From: Escherichia coli
GTDB lineage: Bacteria; Pseudomonadota; Gammaproteobacteria; Enterobacterales; Enterobacteriaceae
DNA: 64,000 bases
Assembly: GCF_024502345.1 (NCBI RefSeq)
Contig: NZ_JALDNN010000001.1
Strand: one strand, 5' to 3'
The notes under the pieces were generated by a model. That model had not been told where the DNA came from. It did no database searches and worked only from the letters and a program-made list of their open reading frames with translations. The position numbers and the translations under genes were made by a program. How positions within the stretch are numbered: position 1 is the stretch's first letter; the number at the start of each line of letters is the position of its first letter. This document shows, piece by piece, positions 1 through 57,322 of the stretch.

Positions 1-461
1 GATAATCTCGGCGTAATGGACTTTTGCCACGCGAGAAACTGCCGCCACCATTGGGATGGTCGCCTGTCCGCCGCAGGTCACCATATTGACGTTCTGCTGA
101 TCAACGTTGGCTGCCAGATTCACCACCGGCACGCAGTAAGGACCGATTGCCGCGGGCGTCAGGTCGATCAGGCGGATGCCAGGTTTAACGGCACGTAGCG
201 CGGCGTCGTTCTTCACATGCGCGCCTGCACTGGTGGCGTCAAACACGATGTCGATATCGGCGAATTCCGGCATGGCGATAAGCCCTGTCACCCCTTCATG
301 GGTGGTGGCAACGCCCATGCGTCGAGCACGCGCCAGGCCATCAGATTCTGGATCGATACCAACCATCACAGCCATTTCCAGATGCACGCCGTGACGCAGA
401 ATTTTTATCATCAAATCGGTACCGATGTTGCCGGAGCCGATAATGGCGGCTTTACGCTTAC

Positions 462-463
<2 letters not shown>
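1..463 (-). CDS. mhpF: Acetaldehyde dehydrogenase (acetylating) MhpF, N-terminal part; gene continues beyond the window start
   Basis: Reverse complement of 443-463 encodes MSKRKAA; reverse complement of the window start encodes [47 protein letters not shown], matching MhpF. Start overlaps the mhpD stop. Confidence 0.9.
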
Positions 464-1280
<817 letters not shown>

Positions 1281-2147
1281 TTAAGGGCGTGTGAGGAAAT
1301 TCAGCACCAGTTGGTTAAAGGCATCCGCATGTTCCCACTGCGCCCAGTGCCCGCAGTCGCGGTAGATGTGCAGTTCAGAACCGGCAATCCCAGAAAGCAG
1401 GCGCAGACCGGCATCCATCGGCACAAAGCGGTCATTGCGTCCCCAGACAATCAGGGTCTGGGCTTTGATTTCACCCAGACGCGGGCTGAAATCCGGGAAC
1501 TGTTTCGGGTTGGCCTCCAGACTCTGGACAAAGTTTTCCAGGTGATCGCGACGCGACAGCATGTTATTCAGGCGCGCCTTAAACAACGCCTCGGTCAGGT
1601 CGCTGGTGTCGAAGACAAAGATCTCCATCATCAGCTTCAGGTTCTCGATGGTCGGCTCACGATACAGCTGATTCAGGCGCTTGATACCTTCGGTCGGCAT
1701 CGGGGTAAACAGGCTCATGCCGCCCGTTCCGCCGCCCATTAATACCAGTTTGCCCACGCGCTCCGGCCAGCTCAGGGTAAACGCCACAGCACTGTGACCG
1801 CCCATCGAGTTACCCAGCAGGTGGACTGTTTGAATATCCAACTGATCGACCACGCTTTTCAGGATGCGGGCGTTGAGATCGGATCGCGAACCGCGGTTAA
1901 CGATCCCATCGCTTTTGCCCCAGCCAGGACAATCCAGCAGGATCACCCGGTATCCGGCCTGTACCAACGGATCGATATTACGGCTGAAGTTTGCCCAGCC
2001 CGTCGCGCCAGGACCAGAGCCATGCAACAGCACGACGGTCTCATCGCCCTGCCCACAGTCATTGAAATGCACGCGTAGGGTTTCGCCTGCTTCCTGCACT
2101 TCCAGAAAACGACTGGTAGCGGCTTCGGTTTGCGGTTGGTAAGTCAT
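1281..2147 (-). CDS. mhpC: 2-hydroxy-6-ketonona-2,4-dienedioate hydrolase MhpC (alpha/beta hydrolase)
   Basis: ORF 1281..2162; start placed at MTYQPQTEA by homology; GNSMGG nucleophile elbow present. Alternative start at 2162. Confidence 0.88.
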
Positions 2148-2175
2148 GATGTTCTCCTGCATATTCAGTTCTGTT

Positions 2176-3129
2176 TTAGTTCTGTGTAGTGGCGCTCAGG
2201 GAGCCGAATCCGGCGATCCACTCCGGGATCGGGCGGTAATAACGGCCTTCGCTGCGCCAGTTGCCAAAAGCAGAAATGGCGGCAAAGGCGGCAAAGGCGG
2301 CAACCCAGGTTTTCACTTCGTGCGTTGATTTGCCCGCCATCGCGGACAGCTCTTCGTTACTGACCGCGTCCAGCCCCTGCAAACGCCCCTGCTCAAGCAG
2401 GGACATAAAACGGTTATCCCAGACAGGGTTAAGCGGGTGTAGCGTGTTTTGATCGACCACAAACTTCTCGGCGGCGCTGATCACCCGCTGCTGGCGCAGC
2501 TCGCGCTCGTTTTCAGGTAACTGTTTGCCACTGCCGAGCAGGCGGTCACGCATATGGGCATCAGCCTTCGCCAGCTCCGGTACCGGCGGCTGATGCGATA
2601 GCCCGCCGGAGCCTAAAAACAGCACGCGCTTATTCAGCGAGCTGGCGAAACGGCCAATCGCTTCACCGAGCATGCGGGTACGCTGAAAGCCCGGCAGCGG
2701 CGTTGCGACGCCGTTAATAAACACTGGCAGCACCGGCACCTTATCCAGGCCGCCGAGCAAAAACTCCAGCGGCTGCGCGAAGCCATGATCGACCTGCATG
2801 TTGTAGGACACGGCGAGATCGATACCGCTTTTCATTACCGCGTGGGCGCAGGCTTCAGCCAGATCTGTCGGCACCGGTAATTCCCCCGCCGCGCTACCAA
2901 AATCGCCGATCGCCGTAGCGCCAACGCCTAAACAGAACGGCGGCATCACGTCGTAGGAAAATCCGTTGTAGTGATCGGGGGCAAACAGCACGACCAGTTC
3001 AGGTTCGAACGCCGCAATACGTGCCCGAGCGCTGGCGATCACGCCATTAACCTCGTCGAGCACAGCCTGTGCCGGGTCGACATAGCCCACCAGCGGCGAG
3101 TGGGAAAGACAGTGAAGATAAGCGTGCAT
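2176..3129 (-). CDS. mhpB: 3-carboxyethylcatechol 2,3-dioxygenase MhpB (extradiol dioxygenase)
   Basis: ORF 2176..3147; start placed at [19 protein letters not shown] by homology to MhpB. Confidence 0.9.
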
Positions 3130-3130
3130 A

Positions 3131-4515
3131 TCAGGCAACCTTTTCAACAGGAATGTCGGCAGTAGCGCGAGTGAGCGTCATCACCGACGCCAGTTTATTC
3201 AGGGTGCTGCCCAGGGTTTGCGGAATGGCGATGGCGGCCACGAAGCGGTCCGGACGCATGACTACCAGCGCGGCGTTGTGCTGGGCAAACCACGCGCGCA
3301 GGCGGTTTTGCGTATCGCCTATGCGGGTAACGCCGTCGTGGTTATCCTGATCGGTATGTATCTGCGTATCCGGCACGACCTGGATAAAACGCGTCCCCAG
3401 CGCCTGCCACTGTTGGATCTGCGCCTCGCTCATGCCCCATAGTGGGTTACAGCCCCAGCCAATCACCGCAAAATTCGGTCCGATGACGTTGTCGAGCAAC
3501 GTCACTTCGCCCGATTCCAGCGTCACCTTCGGCTGGATAAACATCTTGCCGACCGGTGAAGTTTTCGCGTCGCCTTCACGCACCAGCGCCCCGGCGTGGT
3601 ACTGCGGCATCGGCTTAAACCGCATTTCAAGGAAGTAGCGTTTGACCGGCGGAATATAGTTCAACAGCCAGGAAACCCCATCGCGTACCGCGCCGTGCCA
3701 GCGTTTGGGCGGCGCAAGTACGTTGCCAGCGGTCACGGAGAGGTCGATCATCGCTTTGGCGTGGTCGCGGCGTTCCTGCTGGTAGGTATCCAACAGCGCA
3801 TCGTCGGCTTTACCGTTAATCACCAGCGCCAGTTTCCATGCCAGGTTGAAAGCATCGCGCATGCCGCTGTTGTATCCCTGACCCTGCCAGACCGGCATAA
3901 TGTGCGCCGCATCGCCCGCCAGCAGCACGCGGTCAATACGAAAACGTTCGGCCAGACGAGCATTATGGGTATACACGCGCTGGCGGATCAGCTCGACGTT
4001 GTCCGGGTTCGGCAGCACTTTGCTCAGTAACTGGCGCATATTCTGCGGCTCGCTAAGCTGCGCTTCGGTTTCCCCCGGCATAACCATAAACTCAAAACGG
4101 CGCACCGCGTGCGGCAGCGCGGCAGAGACATACGGGCGCACCGGATCGCAGCATAAATACACATGCGGCGTGCTGAGCGGATCGTTGGCGATATCCACCA
4201 CAATCCACTGATTCGGCGCGGTTTTACCTTCAAACGGCACGTTCAGAGAACGTCTGACGTTGCTGCCGCCGCCGTCGCAGGCCACCAGCCACTGAGCCTT
4301 CACCGTTTCACGTTGACCGTCTGGCGCTTTCAGATTTAGCGTCACTTCGCCGTTTTGTTGGCTGAAGGCCTCCAGCTCGCGGGAGAACAGGCAGCGCACG
4401 TTGGGAAAACGCGACAACCCTTCCAACATCACCGCGTCCACCTGCGGCTGAATAAACGCATTACGACGCGACCAGCCAAATTCGTCGGTCATCGGCTGGA
4501 TATCAGCAAAGCAAC
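3131..4515 (-). pseudogene. mhpA: 3-(3-hydroxyphenyl)propionate hydroxylase MhpA, 5'-truncated; about 100 N-terminal codons (FAD-binding region) replaced by IS30
   Basis: ORF begins at internal [19 protein letters not shown]; the reading frame runs directly into the IS30 left end at 4516. Confidence 0.85.
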
Positions 4516-7838
<3,323 letters not shown>

Positions 7839-8055
7839 AATTTAACCTTCATTTGATGTTGAATTGAACATATCAAAATCAGGCAATTACACAAATATAT
7901 GTACAGGCTCGCACCTGGGCTTGCCTGACTGACCGCAGGCCGGCGACGACAAGGTGGAAAAGTTCGGCGTGTGGCTCTGGCGGCAACGATCCCGCGAAGG
8001 GCGGACGGTGCTTGAGCTGTTGAACGTAAGCATGCGGGCAAACCATCTTGCGCGA

Positions 8056-34431: not shown

Positions 34432-35626
<1,195 letters not shown>

Positions 35627-45900: not shown

Positions 45901-48900
45901 CGCATCATACTGCCAGCGGAATAACTCTCTTCGTCAATACGGCTCTCGCTGTACGCTTACCCATCTAGAGAGGTTTCAGGTGATTATCGATGTCAGAAGA
46001 CTGAATGATTCAGTCGTTTACTTTGAGATAGATCAGAGGTTTTTCACTACCTGTGTTCATCACATGGCTACGAATAGTAGAATCCAAGCATAAATTAACG
46101 CTTAGAAAAGTTGAGCTCATGAGATTCCACCCTGAAGGGCCTTCCATACCCGATATCCTCTTAGAACGCTGTGATACAGGTCGAGTTGTATTTCTCTGTG
46201 GCGCTGGGGTTTCATTACCTTCAGGGATGCCAAGCTTTGTAGAGCTTACCCAGCATGTAATTGAATACTTTGACCCACCACACGATTCAGAAATCATGGC
46301 AGCATTTCGCCCATGGCTTCACGACCAATCTTCAGCTAATGTCCCTCTCGACCAAATTTTCAACCTCCTACATCTGGAATATGGCAAGGATGAGGTGAAT
46401 GCTTTGGTATCAAAGCGTCTGGGGACTGCAAGAACTGATATAGAGATTGGACGTGAGCATGCCCTGATTAAAAGAATTTCCTCAAATCAGAGTGGTGTCC
46501 CACAGATTGTCACAACGAACTTTGACCGACTGTTCGAGGATAACCAAGCGCAAGATAATCTAACTCGATATGTGCCGCCAGCTTTCCCAAATCTGAATTT
46601 CGGTTCGACAATTGAGGGAATAACATATCTTCACGGCCGCCTGGTCGACGAAAATGCTGTAAACCATCCTTATGTGCTGAGCAGTGCAGACTTTGGAAGA
46701 GCATATCTTTCAGAAGGATGGGCGACCAATTTTATTAAGCTTCTTCTGGAACGATACATCGTTGTTTTGGTCGGTTATCAGGCAGAAGACCCACCAGTTA
46801 AATACCTCCTTCAGGGTCTCAATCATGATGGCCAGTATGATCGTTCCAGACTTTATGCATTTGATCGCGGCCTTGCCGAGGATATCGAAGCCAAATGGCG
46901 TGACAGAGGAGTTACAGCCATAGCCTATTCCGATCATCCAGCTCTTTGGAAGACTTTGGAAGCATGGGCTGAGCGAGTAGATGATCCACGTCGATGGCGA
47001 GCTTCTATTATCGCTAAAAGCCAGCAAGATCCGAAAGTTCTAGCACCGTATGAACGTGGTCAACTTGCCCATATACTTCGCACTACACAAGGTGCGAAAT
47101 TGTTCTCTGAAGCTGTTCCTCTTCCCCATCCAGAGTGGCTTTGTGTGATGGATGCAAATATTCGGTCAGCCAAACAGAAGAAAAGATACTACGAACTTGA
47201 TGACAATGATGCAGAGACCTTCGATCCACAAGAAGCTTATGGGCTTGATGACGATCTGCAAGATATCGCTGATGATGAACGTAAACGTGGAGTGAGTAAC
47301 GATAATCTCCTTGAATGGCGCGACGAAGATGATAACCCGTCAGATTACCATCGCTTGGCTGGATGTTTGGAGACAATGCCGAAACGATTGAGCCATCTCA
47401 TGGTCTGGTTCTGCAAATCTCTTGATAGCCCCGTGATGGCTTGGTGGGCTATCCGAAAAATCAGTATTCATCCTCTACTACTACAAAATATTGAACGCAA
47501 TATTGAGCATTCAACATCAATCCACAAACGCGCTCGTCAACTGTGGGGCTTAATTCTTGAACATCATAAAGATCCCCGCAATCGTCGTTATGACGTCGAT
47601 TGGTACGACTTAAAAGCTCGAATTACAAAACAAGGCTGGACAGCTGGTGTCTTACGAGAATTTCGTAGGGTAATGACACCCCGATTGGAAAAGAAGTTGC
47701 CGTATGGATTGGGTGAAGTCAGACCGCCAAGCGGCTCCTGGGAGGAAATTCAGTTCAGCGAATTTGGCCAATTTGAAGTTGTGTTCACCGAAAGACATGA
47801 TGACGATTTAGACGTACCTGACAATGTATTACTACAAGTATTTAATGCCTTAGAAGCGCAAATAATAACTGCCTCCGGAATGTTAGAGGATATTGATACG
47901 CACTACTTTCCAAGCCCAAGTTGTTATCCAGAACGTGCGGTTGAAGGAGAAGAACATTTCGCGAAAGGTGCGGAGGTATTAACTTGGTTTGTCCAACTTT
48001 TAGACCGAGTTGTTATGAAGTGGCCAGAATTGGCTAAGGCATACGTAACAACTTGGCCAGTTAAGGAGCCATTTTTCTTCCGAAAGCTTAGACTTTATGC
48101 ATTCAGTAAAAAAGGCGTCTTTGAGGCTGACCGTGTTGCCGAAGAGCTTTTGTCTTTGGATCAAAGTGGATTTTGGGACACAAATATTACCCGCGAACTT
48201 CTTTTTCTGCTCACTGATCGTTGGGAAGAATTCTCGCAAGAAAATCAGAATCGAATTATAGAGCATATATTAACCGGCCCGAACCATTTACTTTATTTGT
48301 CTGAGGAAGACATTCCAAAAGAAAGAGAGATATTAGCAGCTAGATACGCTCGTTATCTCGAACTAAACGGCTGTAAAGTAACCACTATTCATCGTGACCA
48401 ACTAACTGCGATGATTAAAAGAATTCCTGACTGGAATGATGGCTGGGCTACATCTGTTGTCATCAATTGGGGTTCACGGACAGGTTGGGTTCGTACAGAC
48501 GAAAAGCCAGATATAATCTTAGATCTTCCAGCAAACGAAATAATCCCAAAAGTAAAAGAGATACTTAAACGAGAGGATGATAGCTTTACTAGTAGGCAAC
48601 CCTTTGTCGGATTGATAAAAGAAAATCCGCGTAAAGCTTTGTCTGCACTCGCTATTGCAGGGAGAGGCGGTGATTACCCTAAGGAATTTTGGTCGCCAAT
48701 GATAAGTGAGTTACCTATAGATCTTAAACCAAGGGTGAGACGAGTATTCCTGAACCGAATTGTGCGATTGCCAGTTACAGCTTTGGTCGAGTTACGACAT
48801 ACATTAAGTAACTGGCTTGAACAAAATTTAGCTGCGACTCTTGAATTTGATGAGGATCTCGGGTGGGCAGTTTACGATCATGTCATAGCAGGCATACTGA

Positions 48901-49333
48901 GTGGTGGCGCCAGTGCAATACGGAGTAGTTTCGGAGAAGTTATCCGGAATGGAGAAGTTGTAATACAGTCTCGCCGCACGTTCAGTCATGCAATCAATGG
49001 TCCTGTCGGTAAATGTACTCAAGCGCTTTTTCAAGCAATGCCAAGTGAAGAGAAAAAAGCTGGTTCGCTTATTCCTTACTCTATTAAGTCTCGTATTGAA
49101 CATCTTTTTACTGCACCAGGAGAAGGAGCGGACCACGCTATAGCTATAACGTCTCGCAATCTAAATTGGCTAATGTTTGTTGATCCTGCATGGGTAAAGG
49201 AATGGCTTATACCCCTTTTGGATTTAAAACATCCTGCAGCAGAACCAGTATGGAATGGTTATCTTCAGTGCAATGCTATGCCTTCAATTGCAGTAGCTGA
49301 ACTTATTAAACCAGCTTTTCTTAACCTTATCCC

Positions 49334-50390
49334 GGCTTTGTTGAATAAATCAGATTTCGGGTAAGTCTCCCCCGTAGCGGGTTGTGTTTTCAGGCAATAC
49401 GCACGCTTTCAGGCATACCTGCTTTCGTCATTTTGTTCAGCGCTCGTACCAGGGCCATAGCCTCTGCAACCTGACCATCGTAGTCACGCAGTGTCAGTGA
49501 ACCCCCGAACAGCTGTTTTACCCGGTACATCGCCGTTTCCGCTATCGAGCGACGGTTGTAATCTGTTGTCCATTTCCACCGCGCATTACTCCCGGTCATT
49601 CGCTGATTAGCCACTGCACGGTTACGGTCTGCATATTCACCGGGCCAGTAACCCGCACCTTTTCGGGGAGGGATAAGCGCGCTGATTTTCTTACGCCGCA
49701 GTTCATCGTGACATAGCCGGGTATCGTAAGCGCCATCGGCGGCGGCTGACCTGATTTTCCGGTGGGTTTGCCGGATTAACCCGGGGAAGGCCTCTGAGTC
49801 CGTAACGTTGTTCAGCGACAGGTCAGCGCAGATGATTTCATGTGTTTTACTGTCAACGGCGAGATGCAGCTTACGCCAGATACGGCGGCGTTCCTGGCCA
49901 TGCTTTTTGACTTTCCACTCGCCTTCACCGAAGACCTTCAGCCCGGTGGAATCAATTACCAGGTGTGCGATTTCACCCCGGGTGGGCGTTTTGAAACTGA
50001 CATTAACCGACTTTGCCCGCCTGCTGACACAGCTGTAATCCGGGCAGCGTAGCGGAACGTTCATCAGAGAAAAAATGGAATCAATAAAGCCCTGCGCAGC
50101 GCGCAGGGTCAGCCTGAATACGCGTTTAATGACCAGCACAGTCGTGATGGCAAGGTCAGAATAGCGCTGAGGTCTGCCTCGTGAAGAAGGTGTTGCTGAC
50201 TCATACCAGGCCTGAATAGCTTCATCATCCAGCCAGAAAGTTATGGAGCCACGGTTGATGAGGGCTTTATTGTAGGTGGGCCAGTTGGTGATTTTGAACT
50301 TTTGCTTTGCCACGGAACGGTCTGCGTTGTCGGGAAGATACGTGATCTGATCCTTCAACTCAGCAAAAGTTCGATTTATTCAACAAAGCC
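49334..50390 (-). mobile_element. IS903-group element, copy 2, inverted relative to copy 1, with 9-bp TSD CCTTATCCC
   Basis: Same terminal repeats as copy 1; CCTTATCCC at 49325-49333 and 50391-50399. Confidence 0.92.
49390..50358 (-). CDS. IS903-type transposase (copy 2)
   Basis: 322-codon ORF with translation identical to 38097-39065. Confidence 0.92.
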   Translation of the reverse strand: MKDQITYLPDNADRSVAKQKFKITNWPTYNKALINRGSITFWLDDEAIQAWYESATPSSRGRPQRYSDLAITTVLVIKRVFRLTLRAAQGFIDSIFSLMNVPLRCPDYSCVSRRAKSVNVSFKTPTRGEIAHLVIDSTGLKVFGEGEWKVKKHGQERRRIWRKLHLAVDSKTHEIICADLSLNNVTDSEAFPGLIRQTHRKIRSAAADGAYDTRLCHDELRRKKISALIPPRKGAGYWPGEYADRNRAVANQRMTGSNARWKWTTDYNRRSIAETAMYRVKQLFGGSLTLRDYDGQVAEAMALVRALNKMTKAGMPESVRIA

Positions 50391-51152
50391 CCTTATCCCT
50401 TGGATCGAATCTCTTTCTTGGGAAAAAGATTATTCAGTTCGAGCTTCGCAATGGCTTGGCTTAATGAGAATGTTTCACCCTGATGAGCCCTCCAGTCCTT
50501 CCAGGAATGAAATGCGCTCCATATTACGAGCATTATCTGACGAGGCTCGAAATCGTTTTATTTCCTGGTTAGGATTGGTCGGGCAGAAAAACGAGAGTGG
50601 CTGGGTTAAGTATGTGATCCCATTAATCAGAGAGGACTGGCCCAAAGAACGCCAATATAGAACCACGAGCTCTGTAAAAGCATGGATTGGTTTACTTGAC
50701 GATACTGGCGATAAGTTTCCGGAGGTTTACGATTCAGTAAAAACATACTTAGTACCAATCGAGACAATTGATCATTTGTTCTACAGATTCACTCGGGAGC
50801 TCGGTGGTAAAGGAGCAATTGCAGCTATTTTTCCAGAAACCACGCTTGATTTAATGGACAAAATAACACCACTGATATTCACGCGTACATCAGGAGAGCT
50901 GCAGAAGATTCTTGAGCTAATTGAAGATACAGATACAAGTCTGATCAAGGATTCTCGGTACTTACGGCTTATTGCACTGGTTGAGAAAAATTAGCATTTA
51001 TGGTTTTTTACCGTTGTTGATTACTCAGCAACACTTTTCGACATGCCGTAGCGCTTATCGCCTGTTCTTGACTAAGATGAGAAGCAGGCGTTAAAGTTTG
51101 GTTAAAGGAGAACCTCTAACCATTCCTTCTGGAAGAAATAATCTTTGGAGTA

Positions 51153-51875
51153 TTATTGAAATTGCTCAAATATACCATGCAACCCAATAAATTTTATTTT
51201 TAGTGCAGGATCATGCCTTAGAACAGTCTCAAGTGAGTTCCGCTCATAAATTATTGATTGTGCTTGTATTGAGCCGTTCCATGAAGGCAAAAGCAGTAAA
51301 GCAGATGTTTCCAAATCAATACCCCACCAATCGTTAACATAGCAATTTAAAAAATCAACAAGAGCCTTAATCGCAATAAAAGCATCTTTTTCGGTATATG
51401 TTTCAGGATCGAGGGATATACCTGATATATTACTTTTAGCTTGCTCGGAATTAATATTAGACTGGTGTTGATAAGCAATTTTTCCTTCACCCGGTTTAGT
51501 TTCTATTGTATCAGTGAAAATTTTAATCTTAGGATGCACCAATGCATTTCGTTGTGCTATTAATTCTTTTATTATTTGTGTTTGAGTGGTTCCACGAGGT
51601 AAAGACATGTCTTTATGCCATTGAAGAGTATAGTCAAATTTATCAAGTGAAGAGAACCTGTCAATTTGATCTTTTAACTTTTGCGTTATTTCTATAGAAG
51701 ATAAAAATGAGTTAGCTGCAGCCTCAATAGCGTAGTTAATTGAAAGTACACTTGATTTGGCAAGTGTTTTTTTGATGTGTGATTTTTTTGTTGCAGCTGA
51801 TAATTCATAAAGAGTTATTGCATCAGAAAAAAGCTCAAAAAAGCTGTTCTTGGTTATTTCAACTTTTCTTTTCAC
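51153..51875 (-). CDS. P3: hypothetical ~240-aa protein with possible HEPN-type R-x4-H motif
   Basis: ORF 51153..51881; ELIAQRNALVHP contains R-x4-H; start uncertain (TTG at 51881 or GTG at 51875). Confidence 0.55.
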   Translation of the reverse strand: MKRKVEITKNSFFELFSDAITLYELSAATKKSHIKKTLAKSSVLSINYAIEAAANSFLSSIEITQKLKDQIDRFSSLDKFDYTLQWHKDMSLPRGTTQTQIIKELIAQRNALVHPKIKIFTDTIETKPGEGKIAYQHQSNINSEQAKSNISGISLDPETYTEKDAFIAIKALVDFLNCYVNDWWGIDLETSALLLLPSWNGSIQAQSIIYERNSLETVLRHDPALKIKFIGLHGIFEQFQ

Positions 51876-51965
51876 ACGCAACCCTCTGCATAAAAAAATA
51901 AAATCATATAGACAGAATACAATTTCCTATAATCTTTATATTCTACTAATTGTGGATATAAATGG

Positions 51966-53438
51966 CTATCGAGAATAAGAACTGGGTTTAGGAAAACCAC
52001 CTCTGACGACGACAACAACAATTGCAACTTGAGATTGACCTGTTGGATGAGTGAATACTTCAATATCATCCTCTATTACTCCCACCGGCGCTGATTTTGA
52101 CGTTGATTCCAGAACAACCAAAATACCGATACGCTTACCTAATCCAATGGCATAAGCTGCTGTTTGATCGAAATATTTTTGAAAATCCTTGGGAAAAAGA
52201 ACCTTATTATTTTCAACTTTTAGTTCTATCGAAATGTCTTCAAATGTGAGATCCGTTATCCCGCCAGCAGCCTCTGGATGGCCTTGTAATTTCTCGCCAA
52301 TCTCATTCCTACTTCTAAGCATTTCGGCTATTTTACGCTGAAATTTTTGCTCTGATGTGCCAGCAATAAATAAACTAGCTTTAAGAGCTTGTGCTGCAAC
52401 ATTTCCTAAGCCGCCAAGTATAACCATTGTATTAGCAATGTCATCTGAGTGTAATCCAGGGAAAGCTCGTAATATGTTACGAATTTTTATAAGATGCCTA
52501 TCGACGTTTGAAAATCCAGTTAATGGAGCTTGAGCGGAATCACTCCCTTCAAGTAGTAAGCGCCTATGTCCTACGATAGCAATATTTTGGCAATTACTTA
52601 AATTGTCAAACTCGGCAGCATATAGGAATTCGTAAGGTCTCGAGCCAAATGAATTTGCCACTTCCAAGACGACACGACCGATCCCCTTCAGTGTGAAGGG
52701 GCCTTCCCCCTCTGGTTTCTCAAATCTAAAATCAGGCAACCAGTCTCGCTCACGAGCATCAATTGTCACTGGCTTTAATGAGAGGAAATTTGCACTTTTT
52801 GGCCAATTTGAAACCCTGACCTCTATGTTAAGGTCATAAGCCGTACCCGGCTTAAGATAATTCCATTGCTGAGCTGGTTCCCCATCAATATCAAACTTTA
52901 GAAATGCAACTGTCGATTCTTGTGTTTTATTCTCTTTTGTCCCTTTACTAGATATTCCTTGCCTAATCCCCTCAATATTTTTATCGCGAAGATTTGCGAA
53001 TAAGAGTAGTGGCAATGACCAGCTTGTTAACTGGTCTTGTATTTGTTTTAATGAATCTAATTTACTGATTGAACGGACTTGCTCTATAAATTCATTAAAT
53101 TGTTTGTTCTCCGAGAGACTCGTCGTCATGTCGATCTCTGATGCTTTTAATTGTGCTGAATTTAAAAACCTTTGAGCATCAGTCTCAGCATTACGTATAG
53201 CATGTTTCCACTCAGCTAGAGTTACAAATATAGTCATTGCTATATAATATGCACGATATTGATCTTCAACATATCCCTGACCGAGCTCATCGAGCGTTTC
53301 ATTGAGCTTTTGACACGCTTCTTTAAGTTTCACCAAGTCATTCGGAATGGACTTGAGTGCACCATCCAACGCTGCTGCAATCTCAACCCTCGGAGAAAAA
53401 GCTTGGCGGAAAATCTCGAAATTTGGCTCGTTCTTCAT
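51966..53438 (-). CDS. P2: hypothetical ~490-aa protein with possible PD-(D/E)xK-like nuclease core near the C-terminus
   Basis: ORF 51966..53480; C-terminal GGITDLTFEDISIELKVEN...GILVVLE resembles a D...ExK core; any in-frame Met start overlaps the P1 3' end by at least 56 nt. Confidence 0.55.
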   Translation of the reverse strand: MKNEPNFEIFRQAFSPRVEIAAALDGALKSIPNDLVKLKEACQKLNETLDELGQGYVEDQYRAYYIAMTIFVTLAEWKHAIRNAETDAQRFLNSAQLKASEIDMTTSLSENKQFNEFIEQVRSISKLDSLKQIQDQLTSWSLPLLLFANLRDKNIEGIRQGISSKGTKENKTQESTVAFLKFDIDGEPAQQWNYLKPGTAYDLNIEVRVSNWPKSANFLSLKPVTIDARERDWLPDFRFEKPEGEGPFTLKGIGRVVLEVANSFGSRPYEFLYAAEFDNLSNCQNIAIVGHRRLLLEGSDSAQAPLTGFSNVDRHLIKIRNILRAFPGLHSDDIANTMVILGGLGNVAAQALKASLFIAGTSEQKFQRKIAEMLRSRNEIGEKLQGHPEAAGGITDLTFEDISIELKVENNKVLFPKDFQKYFDQTAAYAIGLGKRIGILVVLESTSKSAPVGVIEDDIEVFTHPTGQSQVAIVVVVVRGGFPKPSSYSR

Positions 53439-55956
53439 ATTCTTTCTCCAACTCAGCCGTAAGACCATTCCATTTTTCAATTAAGTCATTATAGGGTTCG
53501 CAAACACTTATGGCATGTTCAATGCTAGCTGCTTCTGTAACTAAAGCAGCCTTAAGTTTCCATTGTGTATTTCTTTCATCATTTGGAATTTCTTCCAGTA
53601 GTTCCTTTAAACAAACATTTGCAGTTACGTTATCACCACACTTGCTTAACGCAGCCACGTACACTAATGCTTCAATAAATTGTTGAGGTTTAAATGGTTT
53701 CAGAGCATTGAATGCTTTTTGGAGATCGTCTTTACAATTTCGAAGCTCATCATGTGGCGCTCTTAATATCACTGAGATGCAGTCATCAATAGAAATACTG
53801 CGAGTATACTCATCCTGAATTGCTTTGAGTGCGACTTTGACAAAACCGGGAATATCATCAAAATGAAAACGCAATCGATTGATAGCATCATAAAGTGCAC
53901 TTCCTTCTAAAATTAATAATATATTAGAAAGAAGCAATCCAATTTTCCCCTTTCTCTCTTCATCTGATAAGCAAAGAGAAGAAAAAACGTCAATGCATTC
54001 TACAATGAAATTATCTTTTTTATCTTGTTGAATATAATAGCAAATTAGATTCCATAGCCGGGATCTCACAAGTCCCCGTTTCTCCTCAGGAAAAGATCTA
54101 CGGCTCAAAGCGCGAACAGCATACTGATGCACCATAACATATTGATCTAATAGCAAGACTGAATATGCTTCGAAGAATAAATCTGGGAAATTCTTCACTA
54201 AATCATAGGGAACATTTTCCCACGCTTGTACGGCACGTGCTCGAATCAATGTACTCTCATCCATAAGAGCACGATACCAATCGGAGAGCACTAGTGTTAG
54301 GCTGTCAATACCAGTTAATAACTTAGAAACATGGGCAATCATGTTCCCACGCATTTGAGTTTGTTCTTCTGGTAAGCTTCTATAGAGATGAAGAAAATCA
54401 TCGATTCCTTCACTCCCTCTAGATTTAGCTCCAATCGCAGCCCATTCAATCAATGCACCCTGTAAGCCATCAATAGCATTACGCTTATTACTTTTATCTA
54501 AATGATCTAGAAAACTCTCATTTATTTCTATGATTTTTTCTTTATTCAACGCCTCAAATTTCTCGCTTAGCGTTGCAGCCGCTCCGATCAAATCGTCAAA
54601 ATTATCAACTGCAAGCTCAGCAAATTCGTCCCAAGAGTGTCTAAAGAATTGTCCTGCATCATCCATGCTATCCTCTGGATTTTCCACAGCAGCCCAGAGC
54701 AAACGCCTAAAAGCTATTTTTTGTGTCTTTCCTGTTTTACTTTTTTTTCTATAGTTATTTCGCAGTACAGATCTGTAAGCTCTATTGGCCTCATGTCTCC
54801 CAATATCATCTTTGTCAGCAAGATAGGATTGAATAACTTTATCGCTTTCATCGGGAAATCTATCTAAGTATTTCGTAGCAGCCTCCCGAAGAAAGAAAAG
54901 AATGCTGCTATCTCTCCGCTCCTCCGGGAGTAGAGTCCGTCGACGCATCAGCTTAGCAAATATACTTCTAATATGTCTTAGAAGCAGCTCATCATCATCC
55001 GATGCAATAATTATCTCAATAGCAAATTGAAATTTTCCCCGGTGAGTATCTTTTATGTATTCATCAACAACATCACAGATATCAGCTTGTCTTTTTTTAA
55101 AAAGTGACTGAATGGGGCCTTTATTAAGTACTTTTCGCTCAAATGTGCCAATCATCATTCCAGGAGGAGATTCAACAGCCATTCTAACAAAGTGGTAAAG
55201 GACTTTTAAGAAATCATCTTCAGATAGATTCTCTGCTTCCAAGAGGATTGCTTCTATAGCTAGTGGACAATATTCGAAGTTGTTTATTAAATATACTGAA
55301 ATTGCCAGTTTTTCCGCTTGTGATAATTCAGTTCTTATTAAAGCTTTTGCTGCTGGCATTGAATATGGTAATTTCTCATGTAACACTGCAGGCAACAAGT
55401 GTTCAATTATTTTACTTGTAAATGTCTCAGGTGCCAGATTAGCAAGTTGTTCCAAACGGGGATCGTTGTTCTCTATATCCTCTTGATCGAGTTCATCAAG
55501 CAAATCAAGCACAAACGTTTCTTCTAGAGTAAGTGAAAGACGTAATACTGCTCGTTCTTGTTGTCTATTGAGCTGCTTCTGCTTTCTCTGCCTTTCTTCT
55601 TCTTTGCGAGCCAAATTTCGTTCTTCGGCAGATTTTTCTCTTGGGCCTACAAACTCTAAAATATTGGGAAATCCCACCGGAACCCGTTGATTACAATGTT
55701 TACAGTTCTGTTTATAGAAGCTGTAAACCGAGTCTTCCAGCAGCCAGCTAAGCATTGAACTTTGCTTAACAAATTTGCATTGAACTCCCATGTGACCAAT
55801 GGGTAACCCTGTTTCAGCCTCAATCATGCCTCTCCCCTCTGATCGAATGAATTCAGAGTGAGAACACCAGTTACTAAGTAGGTGTACAGCACGGAGATTT
55901 CGTTGACCAGCTTCGATTGCCTCTTCAAATCTTTTTTTATCTTCAAAATCATCCAT
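53383..55956 (-). CDS. P1: hypothetical 857-aa largely helical protein with N-terminal Cys/His cluster
   Basis: ATG start MDDFEDKKRFEE; N-terminal C-x-H...C...C-x2-C arrangement (NWCSHSE...GVQCKF...QNCKHCNQ), then a basic coiled-coil and long helical region; low GC. Confidence 0.65.
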   Translation of the reverse strand: MDDFEDKKRFEEAIEAGQRNLRAVHLLSNWCSHSEFIRSEGRGMIEAETGLPIGHMGVQCKFVKQSSMLSWLLEDSVYSFYKQNCKHCNQRVPVGFPNILEFVGPREKSAEERNLARKEEERQRKQKQLNRQQERAVLRLSLTLEETFVLDLLDELDQEDIENNDPRLEQLANLAPETFTSKIIEHLLPAVLHEKLPYSMPAAKALIRTELSQAEKLAISVYLINNFEYCPLAIEAILLEAENLSEDDFLKVLYHFVRMAVESPPGMMIGTFERKVLNKGPIQSLFKKRQADICDVVDEYIKDTHRGKFQFAIEIIIASDDDELLLRHIRSIFAKLMRRRTLLPEERRDSSILFFLREAATKYLDRFPDESDKVIQSYLADKDDIGRHEANRAYRSVLRNNYRKKSKTGKTQKIAFRRLLWAAVENPEDSMDDAGQFFRHSWDEFAELAVDNFDDLIGAAATLSEKFEALNKEKIIEINESFLDHLDKSNKRNAIDGLQGALIEWAAIGAKSRGSEGIDDFLHLYRSLPEEQTQMRGNMIAHVSKLLTGIDSLTLVLSDWYRALMDESTLIRARAVQAWENVPYDLVKNFPDLFFEAYSVLLLDQYVMVHQYAVRALSRRSFPEEKRGLVRSRLWNLICYYIQQDKKDNFIVECIDVFSSLCLSDEERKGKIGLLLSNILLILEGSALYDAINRLRFHFDDIPGFVKVALKAIQDEYTRSISIDDCISVILRAPHDELRNCKDDLQKAFNALKPFKPQQFIEALVYVAALSKCGDNVTANVCLKELLEEIPNDERNTQWKLKAALVTEAASIEHAISVCEPYNDLIEKWNGLTAELEKEYEERAKFRDFPPSFFSEG

Positions 55957-57322
55957 TTAGATAACACCCTTATAAGGAACATGTACTCATCTAAAATGCT
56001 GTTACCGGATTATTATACCTAAAACAATGAATGCTGTGTATTATGAAATGTGATATAAGTCAATTAGTTACATATAAAAACCAACTCACATCCAAAAGGA
56101 TAGTATTTCGAGGTTTGTAGCATCATTAAATGTGAACTTATTTATCGCCCCCTCAAGTTAACTAATAAATAAGTTATAATTTACATATACTTCTGGAATT
56201 TAGAAACCTTATATCTAATAGTTGAGTAAGTTAATAATCAACATGAGTGTGATTCATAAAAAAAATAATTATTATTTTCAGCCCCTCCATTATGGAGGAG
56301 CAATAATAGTATAGTTTTCCTGTATTCCTAACGATCCAGTTAGGCTTAGAGAAATCTAATTATGAAGCACTCCTGAGAGCAACCCTTCCAACTTTATCAA
56401 TATAATCCGCATACCACTGCATCATCTCTCTCCTGCCTTCCAAATACAGCGCATGGTTGTACGTCCCGCGAATCGCATTCTTATCGACATGCGCAAGCTG
56501 GGTTTCAATCCATGCGGTATTGAACCCTTCCTCATGCAAAATCGTACTCATCGTGTGGCGGAAACCATGCCCCGTTACCTTCCCCGTGTACCCAATCCGC
56601 TTAAACACCTGATTAATACTCGCTTCGCTCATTGTTTTGCGGGGATCATTCCTCCCAGGAAACACCAGAGGATATTGCCCAGACATCACTTTGAGCTGCT
56701 GTACGATCTCCAGCGCTTGGGTAGAGAGGGGCACCAGGTGAGGCCGTTTCATCTTCATGCGCTCTGCAGGTATTTCCCACACCGCTTTTTCAAGATCAAA
56801 CTCACTCCAGAAAGCACCTCGAAGCTCACCGGTGCGAACCCCCGTAAGGATCAGCAAACGTGCGGCAAGAACAACCAGCGGGCTGCCTGTATAGCCAGAA
56901 AGAGCTTTAAAGAAATCTGGTAACTCCTCAACGGTAAGGAAGGGATAATGCTTCGATTCATGCCCTGACATCGCGCTGGTTAGATCCGCAGCCGGATTGT
57001 ATTCCGCACGACCGGTAACTATGGCGTAGCGAAAGACTTCGCTGCAGCGCTGGCGAACTTTCTTGGCCTTCTCTGTCGCACCACGGCTTTCCATTCGACG
57101 CAGTACATTCAACAGAACAAGAGGCTTAATTTCATTGACTGGCTGCTGACCGATATAGGGAAAAATATCTTTATTTAAAGCTTCGATAATGTCCGATGCA
57201 TACCCTTCTGACCATCTGCTCACCTTCGTACCGTGCCACTCAAGCGCCACAGACTGGAACGTATTATGATCTTACCCAGCAATAGTGGACACGCGGCTAA
57301 GTGAGTAAACTCTCAGTCAGAG

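Follow-up and report, generated by a model that had tools for sequence, protein, structure and literature searches.

A Dsr1-like sirtuin gene split by IS903B, a candidate single-gene defence system in an Escherichia coli island

DSR1 depletes nicotinamide adenine dinucleotide (NAD+) upon infection (Garb et al.). The Escherichia coli protein EcDsr1 is triggered by a phage major capsid protein, and effector mutations abolish both toxicity and defence (PMC12803255, 2026 preprint). Dsr1 and Avs7 have homologous sensors, and both sense phage major capsid protein (PMC12803255). In DSR2, residues N133 and H171 of the SIR2 domain are essential for defence (10.1101/2021.12.14.472415). Here, we describe a Dsr1-like gene split by an insertion sequence (IS) in a 64,000-nucleotide stretch of an E. 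coli genome (assembly GCF_024502345.1, contig NZ_JALDNN010000001.1; the whole stretch is hereafter called the window). The locus is highly probably a single-gene Dsr1-type anti-phage system, which an IS903B insertion has turned into a pseudogene.

Relationship to Dsr1

Excising the IS and one copy of its flanking repeat in silico joins the two gene parts (46119-49333 and 50400-50994) into one open reading frame (ORF) of 3810 nucleotides. The only stop codon is terminal, and the repaired protein has 1269 amino acids. A preliminary description, based on the letters of the window, had proposed that the frame is restored with LNLIP followed by WIESLSWEK, and this junction is seen in the joined ORF. 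Its length estimate of about 1290 amino acids derives from an in-frame GTG further upstream at 46053 and has to be corrected. The homologues support the ATG at 46119, as 62 of the 120 best matches share the start methionine and are exactly 1269 amino acids long.

Sequence comparison places the repaired protein as a genuine full-length but distant Dsr1 homologue in a divergent sister clade. The likeness to E. coli Dsr1 covers the one-gene organization, the length (1263 versus 1269 amino acids), the N-terminal SIR2 domain with the motifs GAGxS, TTNFD and YLHG, the long helical sensor aligned end to end, the lack of a nucleoside triphosphatase (NTPase) and the location in a defence island. The difference lies in an overall identity of 22%, and the major capsid protein as trigger of EcDsr1 (PMC12803255) is carried over by analogy only. 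EcDsr1 itself (WP_029488749.1) would fall into the clade of the NCBIfam model NF041818 judging by the shared name, and E. coli Dsr1 WP_053264524.1 (plasmid pMTY18781-2, 1263 amino acids, named by PGAP) was used as a stand-in. BLASTP aligns WP_053264524.1 over residues 1-1263 of the 1269 residues (E 1e-60), with the three motifs in register. Identity amounts to 29% in the SIR2 part (1e-41) and to 21% in the sensor (BLASTP 1e-23). A profile built from the sensors of the clade alone matches residues 412-1260 of WP_053264524.1 with 220 bits.

Profile searches point to the same family. The PADLOC Dsr1 models PDLC04167 and PDLC02183 match the repaired protein at 7.8e-86 and 3.7e-80 (268 bits for the latter), judged by E-value and with the PADLOC coverage rules left aside. 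The sole NCBIfam match is NF041818, "anti-phage defense-associated sirtuin Dsr1" (E 2e-113, 380 bits), in which residues 460-1265 align with profile positions 449-1261 out of 1263. NF041818 is an equivalog model of Dsr1 with a curated cut-off of 1400 bits, and the control WP_053264524.1 reaches 1674 bits on it and 1616 bits on PDLC02183. Because the repaired protein scores 380 bits against this cut-off and control, its sequence makes it a family-level relative of Dsr1 and no equivalog. Seven further representatives of the clade score 254-396 bits on NF041818. The clade is large, with 2787 matches in a 90%-clustered database. In a 50%-clustered library, 1016 representatives were found at E < 1e-30, almost all of 1240-1280 amino acids. 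RefSeq names these proteins only "SIR2 family protein", so that censuses based on NCBI names will miss the clade. The annotated coding sequence of at least one intact E. coli record begins at M60 and lacks the NAD-binding loop.

The SIR2 motifs named in the preliminary description were located in the repaired protein (Table 1), and structure prediction recovered the fold expected of them. Pfam SIR2_2 matches residues 129-268 (E 4e-13). An AlphaFold2 model of residues 1-400 reaches a predicted local distance difference test score (pLDDT) of 91.3. Its best Foldseek matches in the PDB are KomC/HAM-SIR2, ThsA, DSR2 and Avs5, with E-values from 3e-11 to 4e-9. Across 60 diverse homologues, no variation was seen at G28, G30, S32, T133, N134, D136 or G173, and 59 of them retain H172. 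Searches of PDB sequences with the single protein or a 33-sequence profile returned nothing at E <= 1, and the N-terminal 293 residues alone aligned weakly to KomC and SIRT3 in the glycine-loop region only. The SIR2 part is conserved far better than the sensor, with 35-60% versus 21-42% identity to distant representatives. Such a pattern is usual for immune receptors. The N-terminal domain is thus predicted to be of the SIR2 NADase type, the activity itself being one that we infer from the modelled fold and the conserved residues.

The remainder of the protein, roughly 870 amino acids, is predicted to form an all-helical solenoid devoid of NTPase motifs. The AlphaFold2 model of this sensor has a pLDDT of 88.8 and is almost entirely helical, in line with the helical sequence lacking a Walker A motif that had been described before. 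Neither a Walker A pattern ([AG]xxxxGK[ST]) nor a Pfam NTPase domain was found in the repaired protein. Fold searches with the sensor model returned generic HEAT/ARM solenoids only, and therefore give no clue to the sensor ligand.

Other defence proteins share parts of this architecture. Bacillus subtilis DSR2 is also a single gene with an N-terminal SIR2 NADase and a large helical C-terminal sensor, which in DSR2 binds a phage structural protein. Its SIR2 fold matches the model (Foldseek 1e-10), and its N133 and H171 are the counterparts of N134 and H172. Membership in DSR2 was ruled out, as the similarity is restricted to the SIR2 domain and no homology to the tail-tube-binding domain of DSR2 was found in the C-terminal domain. 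The SIR2 domains of ThsA (Thoeris), KomC (HAM-SIR2) and Avs5, the other best structural matches, all belong to NAD+-consuming immune effectors. They differ in being activated by small-molecule signals, partner proteins or STAND oligomerisation, with no fused solenoid sensor. Avs7, a STAND NTPase with a TPR-like bilobed sensor, would resemble the present protein only via the homology of the present sensor to that of Dsr1. The present protein carries no STAND NTPase module or Walker A motif, and its effector is SIR2. The STAND/Avs class as a whole (e.g., the SIR2-STAND protein Avs5) was ruled out by the lack of a Walker A motif and of an NTPase domain. The preliminary description had favored a DSR-type protein over STAND/Avs, which agrees with the PADLOC Dsr1 matches, the missing Walker A motif and the alignment to Dsr1 over residues 1-1263. 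Between DSR1 and DSR2, the protein is specifically Dsr1-like.

The IS903B insertion and the state of the gene

The element in the gene has all the hallmarks of the IS903 group: a length of 1057 bp, 18-bp terminal inverted repeats, a 9-bp target-site duplication and an IS5-family transposase. Nothing notable distinguishes it from IS903 or IS903B. The coordinates and the intact duplication given in the preliminary description hold, and the repeat CCTTATCCC is perfect on both sides. A 9-bp match at the IS ends has a chance of about 4e-6. The window carries a second IS903B copy (copy 1 in Table 1) in inverted orientation relative to the first, and the two show 0 mismatches in 1057 positions. Many enterobacterial plasmids carry copies that are 100% identical to the element and annotated as "IS5-like element IS903B family". 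The junction between IS and gene was not found in any of 5426 complete E. coli genomes, although the flanking DNA is that of E. coli.

An uninterrupted allele, sought for comparison, was recovered elsewhere. It is 99.9% identical and carries CCTTATCCC once. The perfect duplication, the identical IS903B copies and the near-identity to intact alleles fit a recent insertion of IS903B into codon 1072 of the Dsr1-like gene, and they support the earlier proposal of a recent single-step inactivation. A Tn903-like composite transposon (38065-50390) was considered as the carrier of the gene and ruled out. The two IS copies are flanked by different duplications, and the DNA between them keeps its native order relative to the IS-free island.

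Three residue differences emerged from the comparison with the intact allele: T584I, V1044A and H1197L. At position 1197, the window allele retains the consensus histidine. Position 1044 is valine in the window and alanine in 32 of 33 homologues. The gene had been described as otherwise intact. The part of this claim that stands is the frame, which the repair restores. Because of A1044V at a position held by alanine in nearly all homologues, intactness beyond the insertion is likely and not proven.

The unrepaired ORF runs into the IS and stops at 49364. Its product would comprise 1072 native residues followed by 9 IS-encoded ones (ALLNKSDFG), 1081 amino acids in total, and lack native residues 1073-1269 (197 amino acids). 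The insertion point at residue 1072 falls within a helix (residues 670-677 of the AlphaFold2 sensor model). The 3' part covers the final approximately 12 sensor helices, in which W1128, W1140, W1152-P1153 and W1167 are among the invariant residues. Another ORF (50302-50994) begins within the IS and continues in frame through the 3' fragment. Between 45300 and 51300, promoter-like patterns were counted 8 times against 9.8 expected from shuffled sequence, which is no excess, and terminator-like patterns 8 times against 5.6, within 1 standard deviation. The lost 197 sensor residues span about 12 helices and many invariant positions, so that the truncated protein most likely no longer senses or folds and the system is dead.

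Other carriers have lost the gene independently. The allele of E. coli ET826 has the nonsense change Y642*, and that of E. coli 2018-05-2CC has Y642* plus W400*. In E. coli ET881, Y642* is accompanied by the loss of the first 1500 nucleotides, with IS1 at the breakpoint. Two elements disrupt the allele of E. hormaechei RHBSTW-00844: ISSen4 has truncated it, and an IS3-family element splits it. Such repeated losses may reflect plain decay of accessory islands or a cost of the gene, and the sample is too small to tell. A more specific possibility is that the clade represents a distinct Dsr subtype sensing a phage component other than the Drexlerviridae-type major capsid protein to which EcDsr1 responds. 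The repeated knock-outs in Enterobacteriaceae may reflect a real fitness cost, such as autoimmunity against a structural protein of a resident prophage, and not neutral decay. We regard this combined scenario as rather doubtful.

Proposed activity and competing explanations

By analogy with the described systems, the C-terminal alpha-solenoid (approximately residues 400-1269) would serve as a receptor for a phage protein. The most likely ligand, by analogy with E. coli Dsr1, would be the major capsid protein. Ligand binding would free the N-terminal SIR2 domain, in which the GAGVS loop, N134/D136 and H172 would make up the active site. The freed domain would hydrolyse NAD+, starving the infected cell and blocking phage replication. 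The general scheme, in which binding of a phage structural protein to the solenoid switches on a SIR2 NADase, is likely to apply, by analogy. The capsid protein as trigger for the present clade can be put forward only tentatively on the same grounds.

Several points speak against a straightforward Dsr1-type system inactivated by the IS. The protein misses the equivalog cut-off of NF041818, scoring 380 instead of 1400 bits, and is only 22% identical to the Dsr1 control. Because of both, the trigger and the outcome of activation may differ from those of Dsr1. We know of no tested member of this clade. The private change A1044V may have affected the gene apart from the IS, and loss of function of the 1081-residue product is an assumption.

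The insertion might have left some activity in place, for instance if the 1081-residue product, perhaps together with a C-terminal fragment made from the ORF that starts in the IS, acted as a deregulated NADase or as a sensor of altered specificity. The truncated product would lose nothing of the SIR2 domain and would still have about 77% of the sensor, and that ORF is indeed in frame with the 3' fragment. We consider this very unlikely, as the lost 197 residues hold the family-invariant tryptophans and W1152-P1153, and the lost helices are part of one continuous solenoid. A constitutive NADase would be toxic, and promoter-like patterns were no more frequent than in shuffled sequence. The nonsense changes (Y642*, W400*) and IS-mediated deletions in other alleles further indicate loss and not remodelling. 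Slightly less credible still is a role in housekeeping or regulation, in which the protein would combine a scaffold domain with a sirtuin acting as a protein deacylase or ADP-ribosyltransferase and not as an immune NADase. The uninformative RefSeq name would accommodate such a role, as would the label "NAD-dependent SIR2 family protein deacetylase" that one source gives to a homologue. Pfam, though, finds SIR2_2 and not the classical sirtuin family, the closest folds are all defence NADases, and the homology to Dsr1 is full-length. A housekeeping role also fits poorly with a gene that is found on mobile islands next to Olokun, PDC-M09 or Gabija and whose neighbours change, and with a patchy distribution in 6 of 5426 complete E. 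coli genomes.

The explanation to which we give the least weight is an assembly artefact, in which a collapsed or misplaced repeat would mask a gene that is really intact. In its favour, IS903B occurs in multiple copies, and short-read assembly is made difficult by copies that are identical. Misassembly would not create a perfect 9-bp duplication of a sequence that is single in the intact allele, though, and such a duplication is the signature of IS903 transposition. IS903B copy 1 also has its own, different duplication. A Dsr1-type defence gene inactivated by IS903B thus accounts best for the locus. The conceptual gain is small, as NAD+ depletion by Dsr1-type sirtuins is an established form of defence and defence genes are commonly disrupted by IS elements. 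The clade is unstudied and under-annotated, and nothing at the present locus departs from known biology. The present island, together with the independent lesions in other carriers, provides a compact illustration of the decay and turnover of defence islands.

The surrounding island

Upstream of the Dsr1-like gene lies the PADLOC candidate system PDC-M09 (A gene 2e-120, B gene 2e-213), which is broken by IS elements. Downstream and convergent are a conserved ORF of 242 amino acids and then an intact Olokun system. The neighbours of the Dsr1-like gene are divergent or convergent, and the gene stands alone. In Serratia, a block of the Dsr1-like gene, a 240-amino-acid ORF, OloB and OloA is retained, with a 90%-identical protein and the gene placed between PDC-M09 and Olokun. 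P. aeruginosa has a homologue of 66% identity as a lone gene, carried by a small integrase/Rep element and adjacent to Gabija-like genes. The distribution of the gene is patchy also within E. coli (see above). As the neighbours change and the gene always occurs alone, its context fits a one-gene defence system.

Table 1. Features of the Dsr1-like gene, the IS903B insertion and the surrounding island (window coordinates)
Feature	Coordinates	Strand	Remarks
Dsr1-like gene, 5' part	46119-49333	+	codons 1-1071 plus 2 nucleotides of codon 1072
SIR2 NADase-type effector domain (predicted)	46119-47153	+	approximately residues 1-345; Pfam, AlphaFold2, Foldseek, residue invariance
GAGVS loop	46200-46214	+	residue 28
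TTNFD (N134, D136)	46512-46526	+	residue 132
YLHG (H172)	46626-46637	+	residue 170
All-helical solenoid sensor region (predicted), portion 5' of the IS	47319-49333	+	residues 401-1072; AlphaFold2, Dsr1 homology
Target-site duplication, left copy	49325-49333		9 bp, CCTTATCCC; single in intact allele
IS903B-type element, copy 2 (IS5 family)	49334-50390	-	1057 bp, 18-bp terminal inverted repeats GGCTTTGTTGAATAAATC
Transposase ORF of IS903B copy 2	49390-50358	-	NCBIfam IS5-family transposase, 357 bits
Target-site duplication, right copy	50391-50399		9 bp, CCTTATCCC; perfect match to left copy
Dsr1-like gene, 3' part	50400-50994	+	last base of codon 1072, codons 1073-1269, stop
IS5	34432-35626		1195 bp, 4-bp overlap at junction; in island
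IS903B copy 1	38065-39121	+	own duplication TCTCAAAAG; within PDC-M09A gene
IS110-family element	39488-40849		in PDC-M09A
840-amino-acid protein	42774-45296	+	3' of PDC-M09B
242-amino-acid ORF	51153-51881	-	between Dsr1-like gene and OloB
Olokun system, intact	51966-55956	-	OloB 51966-53480 (PADLOC 5e-58), OloA 53383-55956 (3e-77)
IS3-family element	57268-58523		1256 bp; splits island integrase gene (56360-58900)
tRNA-Thr(CGU)	58981-59056		island integration site adjoining proA

IS elements occur in two of the three defence loci of the present island and in its integrase gene. With its integrase split by the IS3-family element, the island has probably lost the ability to excise in the present strain. 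A deletion of about 241 bp was found in arsC.

Two neighbouring ORFs deserve mention. The 840-amino-acid protein encoded 3' of PDC-M09B combines predicted membrane segments with a cysteine-rich stretch and, at its C-terminus, a region resembling a glycine zipper. Its similarity to PDC-M09B is only weak (6e-05), and searches of Pfam, NCBIfam and PHROGs gave no significant match. The protein could be a third component of PDC-M09. The 242-amino-acid ORF next to OloB has no match in Pfam, PADLOC, NCBIfam or PHROGs, and its position beside OloB and OloA is conserved in the Serratia loci. It may be an unrecognised third gene of Olokun. The source strain is rich in IS elements. In the mhp region (window positions 1-8000), IS256-, IS30- and ISEc52-type elements are present that are common to other E. 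coli strains.

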